Source: Escherichia phage G4. Taken from it: a DNA stretch of 5,577 nt. Location: sequence record NC_001420.2. One strand, given 5' to 3'. The notes beneath the pieces are model-generated. The model was not told the DNA's origin. It saw only the letters and a program-made list of their open reading frames with translations, and did not search any database. Position numbers and translations under genes: made by a program. Within the stretch, counting starts at the first letter, position 1. The number at the start of each line of letters is the position of its first letter. Shown here in pieces: positions 2,600 to 5,577 of the stretch.

Positions 2600-3883
2600 A
2601 TGTCTAACGTTCAAACATCTGCGGACCGTGTACCTCATGACTTATCTCACCTTGTCTTTGAGGCTGGTAAAATTGGCCGCCTCAAAACTATCTCTTGGAC
2701 GCCTGGTGGTGCTGGTGACTCTTTCGAGTGTGATATGGTTGGCGCTATTCGTCTGTCCCCTCTTCGTCGTGGCCTCGCTGTTGACTCACGCGTTGATATC
2801 TTTCCTTTCTATATCCCACACCGTCATATCTACGGTCAGCAGTGGATTAACTTTATGAAGGATGGCGTTAATGCCTCCCCTCTTCCTCCTGTTACATGCT
2901 CCTCTGGTTGGGACTCTGCTGCTTATCTCGGTACCATTCCGTCTTCTACCCTTAAAGTGCCTAAATTCTTACATCAGGGCTATCTGAATATTTATAATAA
3001 CTACTTCAAACCGCCTTGGTCTGATGACTTAACTTACGCTAACCCATCCAATATGCCTTCTGAGGATTATAAATGGGGCGTACGTGTCGCTAACCTTAAA
3101 TCTATCTGGACTGCGCCACTTCCACCGGATACTCGTACATCTGAAAACATGACTACTGGTACATCCACTATTGACATTATGGGCCTTCAAGCCGCATACG
3201 CTAAATTACATACGGAACAGGAACGTGATTACTTCATGACCCGTTACCGTGACATTATGAAAGAGTTCGGCGGTCATACATCCTATGATGGTGACAATCG
3301 TCCTCTTCTGCTCATGCGCTCTGAATTTTGGGCATCTGGCTATGACGTAGACGGTACTGACCAATCTTCTCTCGGTCAATTCTCTGGTCGCGTTCAGCAG
3401 ACCTTCAATCACAAAGTCCCACGCTTCTATGTTCCTGAGCATCGCGTAATTATGACTCTGGCGGTTACTCGCTTTCCGCCTACTCATGAAATGGAAATGC
3501 ACTATCTTGTAGGTAAAGAAAACTTAACTTATACCGATATTGCTTGTGACCCTGCACTGATGGCTAACCTGCCACCTCGTGAAGTATCCTTAAAAGAATT
3601 CTTCCACTCCTCACCCGATTCTGCTAAATTCAAAATCGCTGAGGGCCAATGGTATCGTACACAGCCTGACCGTGTCGCTTTCCCATATAATGCTCTGGAT
3701 GGATTCCCGTTCTACTCTGCTCTCCCGTCCACGGAACTAAAAGACCGTGTACTGGTTAACACTAATAACTACGATGAAATCTTCCAGTCTATGCAGCTTG
3801 CACACTGGAATATGCAAACTAAATTTAACATTAACGTTTATCGTCACATGCCTACGACACGTGACTCAATCATGACCTCGTAA
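2600..3883 (+). CDS. F: Major capsid protein F (427 aa)
   Basis: Product MSNVQTSADRVPHDLSHLVFEAGKIGRLKTIS...SPLRRGLA.DS.VDIF.FY.PHRH.YG.QWI.FMKDGVNA.PLP...IDIMGLQAAYA.LHT.QERDYFM.RY...LPTTRDSIMTS is highly similar along its length to recalled phiX174 F. ATG 2600 is preceded by SD AAGGA (2588-2592) at 7-nt spacing. The upstream in-frame ATG at 2561 lies inside a palindromic hairpin, has no SD, and its 13-aa extension has no homology. Confidence 0.95.
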   Translation: MSNVQTSADRVPHDLSHLVFEAGKIGRLKTISWTPGGAGDSFECDMVGAIRLSPLRRGLAVDSRVDIFPFYIPHRHIYGQQWINFMKDGVNASPLPPVTCSSGWDSAAYLGTIPSSTLKVPKFLHQGYLNIYNNYFKPPWSDDLTYANPSNMPSEDYKWGVRVANLKSIWTAPLPPDTRTSENMTTGTSTIDIMGLQAAYAKLHTEQERDYFMTRYRDIMKEFGGHTSYDGDNRPLLLMRSEFWASGYDVDGTDQSSLGQFSGRVQQTFNHKVPRFYVPEHRVIMTLAVTRFPPTHEMEMHYLVGKENLTYTDIACDPALMANLPPREVSLKEFFHSSPDSAKFKIAEGQWYRTQPDRVAFPYNALDGFPFYSALPSTELKDRVLVNTNNYDEIFQSMQLAHWNMQTKFNINVYRHMPTTRDSIMTS

Positions 3884-3892
3884 CGCAACAAA

Positions 3893-3999
3893 GGCCGCCC
3901 CTCTACTGGTCAGATACCTGCCCAATGTGGGGCGGACCGTGCCTACGGAGATACTCGAGTCTCCGATACATGGACGGCGAAAGCCGCCGTCCCTACTGC
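3893..3999 (+). other. Cluster of three GC-rich stem-loops in the F-G intergenic region; candidate complementary (-) strand origin / primase recognition structure
   Basis: Stem-loop 1: CCGCCCC (3895-3901) pairs with GGGGCGG (3929-3935), 7 bp with a 27-nt loop. Stem-loop 2: CGGAGA (3946-3951) pairs with TCTCCG (3960-3965), 8-nt loop. Stem-loop 3: GGACGGCG (3972-3979) pairs with CGCCGTCC (3985-3992), 5-nt loop. A repeated motif GCCGCC..(C)CTACTG follows stems 1 and 3 (3894-3908 and 3983-3998). The G4 complementary-strand origin recognised by DnaG primase is known to lie in the F-G intergenic region and to consist of stem-loops. Confidence 0.6.
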
Positions 4000-4019
4000 A
4001 AAGCCAAAAGGACTAACAT

Positions 4020-4553
4020 ATGTTCCAGAAATTCATTTCTAAGCACAATGCTCCAATTAACTCTACTCAGCTTGCTGCTACTAAAACCCCAGCTGTAGCG
4101 GCACCTGTTTTATCTGTGCCTAACTTAAGTCGCTCTACTATTCTAATCAATGCAACAACCACAGCCGTTACAACTCATTCAGGCTTGTGCCATGTTGTTC
4201 GCATTGATGAAACAAACCCAACAAATCATCACGCTCTATCTATTGCAGGTTCGTTATCAAACGTCCCTGCTGATATGATTGCTTTTGCCATTCGTTTTGA
4301 GGTCGCTGATGGCGTCGTTCCTACTGCCGTCCCGGCCTTATACGACGTCTATCCAATCGAAACCTTCAATAACGGCAAAGCAATCTCATTTAAAGATGCT
4401 GTTACCATCGACTCACATCCCCGCACCGTCGGTAACGACGTTTATGCGGGAATCATGCTCTGGTCTAACGCTTGGACCGCCTCTACTATCTCTGGCGTCC
4501 TCTCTGTTAATCAGGTAAACCGTGAAGCAACCGTCCTTCAACCTCTGAAATAA
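4020..4553 (+). CDS. G: Major spike protein G (177 aa)
   Basis: Product begins [10 protein letters not shown] and ends ...LSVNQV.....LQPLK, matching the conserved N- and C-termini of recalled phiX174 G (MFQTFISRHN ... LQPLK) with internal motifs (YDVYP, VTID..PRT.GN.VY.G.M.WSN). SD AAGGA (4008-4012) at 7-nt spacing. Confidence 0.93.
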
Positions 4554-4563
4554 GGATTATCCT

Positions 4564-5577
4564 ATGTTTGGCTCTATCGCTGGCGGTATCGCCTCCGCAC
4601 TTGCCGGAGGCCTTATGGGTAAATTATTTGGCGGCGGTCAGTCCGCCGACTCTACCGGAATCCAAGGCAACGTCCTTGCTTCCGACAACAATGTTGTAGG
4701 TGCTAATGATGCTGGTATTAAATCTGCTATTCAGGGCTCTACTGTCCCTAACTCTCAGGAAGCTGCTCCCTCTGCTATCTCTGGCATCCTTGCCGACTCT
4801 GGCAAGCATGCGCTCTCGTCTCTTACCAATGCTGGTGCAAATAAACTCATGGAGGCTGTCGGCCTTTCTAAGTCTGCCTCTGACAAGGGCAAGGACACAA
4901 AAGACTATCTCGCCGCCGCATTCCCCGAGCTCAACCCATGGGAACGTGCTGGTGCTGGCGCTTCTAGTCCAGGCATGCAAGACGCTGGCTTCCAAAATCA
5001 GAAGGAGCTAACCAAGATGCAGCTTGACAACCAAAAGGAAATCGCTAAGATGCAAAACGAAACTCAGAAGGAAATTGCTGGGCTTCAATCTATTACATCA
5101 CGCGAAAATACTAAGGATACTGTCTATGCTCAAAATGAAATGCTCGCGTATAACCAAAAAGAGTCTATGTCACGCGTTGGCGCTATTCTCGAAAACACAA
5201 GCCTCACCAAACAGCAACAAACTTCTGAAATTATGCGGCAAATGCTTACTCAGGCTCAAACCGCAGGTCAATATTTTACAAATGACCAAATCAAGGAGCT
5301 TACGAGAAAAGTTGGTGCTGATATTGATGCTGTTCGCGCTAACACTGCACGCACCCATGTAGAAACCGACCGCTCAAAACAGGAAGTACAAAACTCCCGT
5401 TATGCCTCTTCTCAGGTAGGTAAAACCGCTAAGGACGTGTCCAATGCAATTACTGATACAGCTGGTTCTATTGTTGATTATTTTCGTGGTGCTGATCAAA
5501 AAGTGGCAGACGTTTACAACAACTATTTCAAAGATGGCAAATCGAAAGGAATAGAATCCAATCACCGCTCCAAATAA
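4564..5577 (+). CDS. H: Minor spike / DNA pilot protein H (337 aa)
   Basis: Product [26 protein letters not shown]...[24 protein letters not shown]...[77 protein letters not shown]...[31 protein letters not shown] is highly similar to recalled phiX174 H, with a glycine-rich hydrophobic N-terminus and a central coiled-coil-like region. SD AAGGA (4552-4556) at 7-nt spacing. Stop TAA is the last 3 nt of the window. Confidence 0.95.

Follow-up and report, generated by a model that had tools for sequence, protein, structure and literature searches.

The 136-nt interval between genes F and G of phage G4, at positions 3884-4019 of the viral (+) strand, is almost certainly the G4 oric, the origin of complementary-strand synthesis. 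The window (the whole stretch of DNA that was analyzed) is the complete 5577-nt genome of this phage, and the feature within it is real, long known and well described, and is not new. The interval is non-coding on the + strand, contains three stem-loops, carries a CTG just 3' of stem-loop I and is homologous to the reference origins. A first-pass annotation made from the sequence alone had already named it as the G4 complementary-strand origin, and this identification holds, as the three stem-loops with a CTG on their 3' side are an exact match to the published layout of the G4 origin (PMC6783573) and the published stem-loops map here, not elsewhere.

The match of the window to the deposited G4 record AF454431 runs end to end with the same coordinates, with 21 differences over 5577 nt (99.6% identity over 3700-4200) and none within 3884-4019. 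Two further records, GQ153920 and JF719730, are 100% identical to the window over 3840-4060. The interval is bounded by the following features.

2600-3883, + strand: gene F (AF454431 annotation), with its TAA stop codon at 3881-3883
4008-4012, + strand: AAGGA, a Shine-Dalgarno-like sequence for gene G, read from the sequence
4020-4553, + strand: gene G (AF454431 annotation), with its ATG start codon at 4020

All 11 genes annotated in that record lie on the + strand. Because of this gene orientation, and as the packaged template strand of Microviridae is the + strand, the + strand of the window is taken to be the packaged template on which a complementary-strand origin acts. The F-G interval is the longest non-coding run of the genome, the remaining runs being 58, 45, 32, 10 and 1 nt in length, and its GC content is 58.1% compared to 45.7% for the genome as a whole. 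A GC content at least this high was found in only 49 of the 5577 overlapping 136-nt windows of the genome, the maximum of which begins at 3858. The earlier descriptions of the interval as the largest non-coding stretch and as more GC-rich than its surroundings are thus both borne out.

The interval had also been described as folding into three GC-rich hairpins, and folding it as single-stranded DNA returned exactly three, all of which are kept in the centroid structure. Stem-loop numbering here follows the literature.

3893-3938, + strand: stem-loop III (stem 1 of the first-pass annotation), a long imperfect hairpin, -11.6 kcal/mol when folded alone
3946-3965, + strand: stem-loop II, a 6-bp stem (CGGAGA/TCTCCG) with an 8-nt loop, -4.2 kcal/mol alone
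3972-3992, + strand: stem-loop I (stem 3 of the first-pass annotation), an 8-bp stem (GGACGGCG/CGCCGTCC) with the 5-nt loop AAAGC, -10.1 kcal/mol alone

The minimum free energy of the whole interval is -29.1 kcal/mol, compared to -17.1 +/- 2.6 kcal/mol for 200 dinucleotide-preserving shuffles of the same region (z = -4.7), none of which was equally stable. Across the genome, 136-nt windows average -11.7 kcal/mol (sd 4.6), and the five most stable ones, at -28.5 to -30.7 kcal/mol, all overlap the F-G interval, making it the most stable stretch of this length in the genome. As mirror-image hairpins must, the minus strand of the interval folds equally well (z = -5.0), and therefore the strand assignment rests on gene orientation and the CTG, not on folding. 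The second most stable single-stranded stretch of the genome lies at 4553-4720, where it spans the G-H junction and the beginning of gene H, which is rich in GC and in glycine codons; the stretch forms several short GC hairpins (-27.4 kcal/mol, z = -2.55, 1 of 200 shuffles equally stable) and has no similarity to the origin.

In the published description of the G4 origin, the three stem-loops have a 5'-CTG-3' on their 3' side, at whose T primer synthesis begins; the first C of the 28-nt G4 primer is at position 9, and the primer includes 18 consecutive nucleotides without adenine (PMC6783573). The corresponding elements of the window are listed below.

3996-3998, + strand: 5'-CTG-3', the primase initiation trinucleotide, with the primer starting opposite T3997; 3' of stem-loop I, four bases beyond it, and invariant in 19/19 variants
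3970-3997, - strand: template span of the 28-nt RNA primer AGUAGGGACGGCGGCUUUCGCCGUCCAU, computed as the reverse complement and copying stem-loop I
3977-3984, + strand: the mini-hairpin motif GCGAAAGC, which caps stem-loop I and is known for G4 from PMC13037366

In the predicted primer AGUAGGGACGGCGGCUUUCGCCGUCCAU, C first appears at position 9, and the longest stretch free of A covers positions 9-26, or 18 of 28 nt. A primer predicted to start at T3997 is therefore an exact fit to the published G4 primer, providing a test of the start site at the level of sequence. The mini-hairpin likewise agrees with the literature, in which GCGAAAGC is placed at the G4 priming site within hairpin I, with GCGTTAGC as its counterpart in St-1 and alpha3 (PMC13037366).

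Comparison of related phages shows which parts of the structure have been retained. The alignment of homologous sequences (A1) comprises 19 distinct variants of one conserved element, including those of alpha3, St-1 and phiK, with a mean column identity of 90%.

3890-4005, + strand: conserved origin cassette (AAAGGCC ... CTGCAAAGCC), which G4 shares with the alpha3, St-1, phiK clade

When searched against the G4 genome, an nhmmer profile built from this alignment found the cassette as its sole site (E = 1.4e-33). Within the G4 clade the sequence is near-invariant, as each of the 363 records that cover at least 80% of the 3840-4060 query does so with at least 95% identity. The evolved ID11 lines carry an extra mutation at 3864, which lies in gene F and outside the origin.

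Stem-loop I is 100% paired in 19/19 variants and includes one compensatory pair, which is C-G in G4-clade phages and A-T in those of the alpha3 clade. Two separate compensatory changes, both within the alpha3 clade, are seen in the outer stem of stem-loop III: columns 7/45 change from C-G to T-A in 4 sequences, and columns 8/44 from G-C to A-T in 2 sequences. The covariation score was above that of all 500 shuffles (500/500), and in controls with slid partners the pairing fell from 84% to 31-46%. An RNAalifold consensus computed with RNA parameters gave a competing inner hairpin (CTGCCC/GGGCGG) in place of the stem-loop III outer stem; as the main structure this was rejected, since it leaves unexplained the two double-sided changes for which the outer stem accounts. 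Across the 19 variants, pairing in stem-loop II extends to only 56% of cells. Most G4-clade members have it intact, ID52 and NC6 have a form weakened by mismatches in the 3' arm (TCTACG and TCTATG), and it is absent in the alpha3 clade, where there is no equivalent 3' arm and a 3-bp CGG/CCG stem remains. Given this lack of conservation beyond the G4 clade, stem-loop II is probably not required universally. All 19 variants nonetheless share the same 5' half, TACGGAGA, which points to a constraint on sequence rather than on structure at this position.

In hairpin I, all 19 variants fit GCGNNAGC or GCGNAGC, the mini-hairpin consensus of PMC13037366, and the forms observed are GCGAAAGC, GCGAAGC, GCGTAGC, GCGTTAGC, GCGTAAGC and GCGCAAGC. 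Loop length is 4 nt in NC19, ID52 and NC6 and 5 nt in the rest; because every variant fits the consensus while loop length varies, the constraint seems to be on the mini-hairpin motif and not on a particular loop sequence. Past the CTG, the C[A/T]AAGCC that follows is invariant in the 19 variants bar one clade-specific A/T position. In total, the comparison slightly sharpens the picture of what is under selection: the conserved parts are hairpin I, the outer stem of hairpin III and the CTG, and neither hairpin II nor the upstream repeat copy discussed below is conserved.

A homologous cassette of ~118 nt is present in alpha3, St-1, phiK, WA13, the ID and NC isolates and metagenomic microviruses, and its location differs between clades: it occupies the F-G gap in the G4 clade and the G-H gap in the alpha3 clade. 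Coordinates of the G-H copies are as follows.

4959-5076: alpha3 (L002)
4938-5055: ID62 (L005)
5146-5263: NC29 (L006)
4958-5075: St-1 (L014)
4955-5072: phiK (L009)

In the alpha3 clade the sequence AAAGGAG lies downstream of the cassette and precedes gene H. The cassette behaves as a module that can relocate and that brings along a ribosome-binding site for the gene after it, and from its occupying one gap in the G4 clade and another in the alpha3 clade we infer that its function would be independent of the neighboring genes. Two other non-coding features of these genomes were seen, a very long H-A region in the alpha3 clade (~758 nt; alpha3, L002 1-758) and an additional 233-nt C-D gap in NC29 (L006 2480-2712).

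Database searches placed the cassette within Bullavirinae. Exact-pattern scans of 185,579 species genomes and a metagenome collection with AGCCGCCNTCCCTNCTGCNAAGCC found two alpha3-like microvirus contigs (L029, L030), along with two matches lacking any flanking similarity (L027, L028) that were taken as chance. An exact-pattern scan of IMG/VR with a longer pattern found 12 contigs of 6.05-6.26 kb, all of which have the alpha3-clade form of the cassette. A blastn search with settings for distant similarity, using the 136-nt region against 72,556 plasmids, yielded only short chance matches (E >= 0.4). Together, the plasmid blastn search and the pattern scans of species genomes, metagenomes and IMG/VR gave no evidence of the cassette outside Bullavirinae.

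The first-pass annotation had further pointed to a repeated GCCGCC...CTACTG motif following stems 1 and 3, and had suggested that it may be part of the recognition element. GCCGCC occurs at 3894 and 3983 and CTACTG at 3903 and 3993, separated by spacers of CCT (3 nt) and GTCC (4 nt), respectively.

3894-3908, + strand: upstream repeat copy GCCGCC-CCT-CTACTG, in the 5' arm and interior of stem-loop III
3983-3998, + strand: downstream repeat copy GCCGCC-GTCC-CTACTG, covering the 3' arm of stem-loop I and the start site

The repeat exists, and its second copy does follow its stem, but the first copy lies inside the first hairpin, where C3903 and T3907 to G3909 are paired in the minimum-energy fold. 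Genome-wide, GCCGCC occurs 4 times and CTACTG 5 times. Two other exact 6-mer repeats are found in the region: AGATAC at 3912-3917 (loop of stem-loop III) and 3949-3954 (5' arm and loop of stem-loop II), and AAAGCC at 3980-3985 (loop of stem-loop I) and 4000-4005 (just past the CTG start). The two copies differ in their conservation. At the downstream hexamer, every G4-clade variant has CTACTG and every alpha3-clade variant has CTCCTG, and the block CT[A/C]CTGC[A/T]AAGCC shows no variation within either clade among the 19 variants. At the upstream hexamer, 5 of the 7 G4-clade variants have CTACTG (G4, ID11, ID52, NC6 and NC19), with CCACTG in WA6 and CTATTG in ID41; the alpha3 clade mostly has CTCCCG, with CTCTCG in NC29, CCCCCG in Lilleven and CTCCTG in phiK and NC28.

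That the two copies form a paired recognition element is improbable on this evidence. Chance seldom produces a colinear double 6-mer repeat, as one arose in 35 of 5000 shuffles that preserved the dinucleotides of the region, which is unusual without being overwhelming; two primases per origin have been reported (PMC6783573); and between the G4 and alpha3 clades the same hexamer position changes from A to C in both copies (CTACTG to CTCCTG downstream and to CTCCCG upstream). Against these points, the region as a whole is unremarkable in how many repeated 6-mers it holds (4, compared to 2.2 +/- 1.8 in shuffles), GCCGCC is simply a stem arm in both hairpins, and the upstream hexamer varies within clades, such that CTG is absent there in 10 of 19 variants, including ID41 and most of the alpha3 clade. 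In addition, the upstream copy lies within stem-loop III, whereas the SSB-free regions that bind primase flank the hairpin block (PMC6783573). A narrower proposal, that the upstream GCCGCC-CCT-CTACTG is a functional second primase contact, for instance for the zinc-binding domain of a second DnaG molecule acting in trans, or a back-up start exposed when stem-loop III melts, is decidedly improbable, though less firmly so for the G4 clade with its 5 of 7 CTACTG variants, and a requirement for it as a second contact is argued against by ID41, WA6 and the whole alpha3 clade. Because the upstream hexamer varies and sits in stem-loop III, and the published primase-binding regions flank the block, only the downstream copy is assigned a role. 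The idea of the repeat as a recognition element thus survives for the downstream copy, which holds the invariant CTG start and would matter through this start site and the 3' arm of hairpin I, and it does not extend to the upstream copy, for which any role is unlikely given its natural variation. Most likely, the upstream copy represents a GC-rich stem arm with a variable interior, or else is left over from a duplication.

Two further explanations concern the interval as a whole. It comes directly after the F stop codon, the gene G ribosome-binding site lies within it, the mRNA has the same sense as the viral strand, and the hairpins would form in RNA as well; they could then act mainly in mRNA, terminating or stabilizing the F transcript or regulating G translation. 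Phages related to phiX174 have weak terminators after their structural genes. However, none of the three hairpins is followed by a T-run, and stem-loop I, which is followed by CCTACTGCAAAG, lacks the hairpin plus T-run arrangement of an intrinsic terminator. A scan of 3700-4200 found no promoters and, on both strands, no terminators, and termination as the main function was rejected on the lack of any terminator-like site in this range; a search of the whole genome with the covariance models of Rfam 15 gave no match at E <= 1. In the alpha3 clade, moreover, the F-G gap has only a GC hairpin of 33-36 nt of its own followed by TTT, and the cassette is not tied to F because it follows gene G there. 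As origin function already accounts for the compensated stems and for the invariance of the CTG, a primary role in mRNA is very unlikely, and the hairpins may have a secondary one.

The remaining alternative, that the interval is a primosome assembly site of the phiX174 type, recognized by PriA, and not a primase-only origin, is of negligible probability. In its favor is position, as the F-G gap of phiX174, which holds its PriA recognition hairpin, is equivalent in location to the G4 interval. The G4 origin profile, however, had no nhmmer match in the F-G-H segment of phiX174, and the F-G regions of phiX174, ID2 and WA14 (alignment A2) differ from that of G4 in both sequence and architecture. 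The interval has no homology to the phiX174 F-G hairpin, with its AAATTTTAATTT loop and GGTTGAnCAAGCGAAGCGCG block, and a phiX174-type site is thereby excluded by sequence; furthermore, G4 needs only primase and SSB (PMC6783573).

The alignment with phiX174 also bears on two close relatives of G4. No G4-type cassette was found anywhere in the genomes of ID2 and WA14, which belong to Gequatrovirus as G4 does (best nhmmer E = 1.3). Their F-G gaps (L003 3830-3928 and L004 3837-3928, respectively) are homologous to that of phiX174 (L031 291-400), and all three have the AAATTTTAATTT loop, a long stem with compensatory changes and, without variation, the block GGTTGAnCAAGCG(C)AAGCGCGkTAG. This suggests that ID2 and WA14 use phiX174-type (PriA) priming, and because these gaps are of the phiX174 type and the genomes lack the G4-type cassette, complementary-strand origin modules appear to have been exchanged or relocated among Bullavirinae.

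With the interval read as the primase-only oric, the sequence features fit the mechanism described for the G4 origin. After infection, the circular single strand would be coated by host SSB, and the three hairpins would resist and phase SSB, leaving SSB-free DNA beside the hairpin block. E. coli DnaG primase would then bind this DNA and SSB without helicase or primosome, with two DnaG molecules per origin (PMC6783573). The RNA primer would begin opposite T3997 and copy stem-loop I for up to ~28 nt, after which DNA polymerase III holoenzyme would extend it around the circle. Published work attributes primer synthesis with primase and SSB only to the complex secondary structure of the G4 origin (PMC6783573), describes two SSB-free regions of ~30 nt that flank the stem-loop block and bind two primase molecules (PMC6783573), and reports both the sufficiency of DnaG with SSB and the exclusion or phasing of SSB by the hairpins (PMC6783573, PMC13037366). 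What was computed here is the sequence identity, the hairpins, the CTG, the predicted primer, the conservation and the covariation, and the biochemical steps (sufficiency of SSB and primase, SSB-free flanks and two primases) are drawn from secondary descriptions and general knowledge. The G4 origin is a classical minimal system for primase recognition of DNA and hand-over to DNA polymerase III, and it is still in use as an experimental template (PMC6783573, 2019). Its re-identification adds nothing new, and confirms that a structured DNA element of this kind was recognized from sequence alone.

G4-type single-strand initiation signals are also present on the plasmids R1, R100, F, R6K and ColE2. 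These are said to resemble the G4 origin in being primed by primase alone on SSB-coated DNA, and they differ from it in that no blastn similarity was found among the 72,556 plasmids, so that any relation is functional or confined to short blocks at most. The phiX174 primosome assembly site is likewise a hairpin origin and an entry point for complementary-strand priming on SSB-coated viral DNA, but it is unrelated in sequence and needs PriA, PriB, PriC, DnaT, DnaB and DnaC before primase (PMC5778457). Much closer are the origins of alpha3, St-1 and phiK, whose primase-dependent negative-strand origins were described by Sims, Capon and Dressler in 1979 (cited by PMC13037366). These have in common with G4 stem-loop I, the outer stem of stem-loop III, the invariant CTG and the AAGCC tail, and the alpha3 cassette is ~81% identical to those of the G4-clade phages NC6 and ID52. 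They differ from G4 in their G-H location, in a 3-bp mini-stem that replaces stem-loop II, in a hairpin I loop of GCGTTAGC, GCGTAAGC or GCGCAAGC, and in a start context of CTCCTG compared to CTACTG. Finally, the G4 oric itself, as described by Fiddes, Barrell and Godson in 1978, by Bouche, Rowen and Kornberg in 1978, and by Sun and Godson in 1993 and 1998 (all cited by PMC6783573), has the same sequence as the interval studied here, with the same three stem-loops, CTG, 28-nt primer copying stem-loop I and GCGAAAGC in hairpin I; between the two there is no difference, and the deposited G4 records differ from the window only outside 3884-4019.
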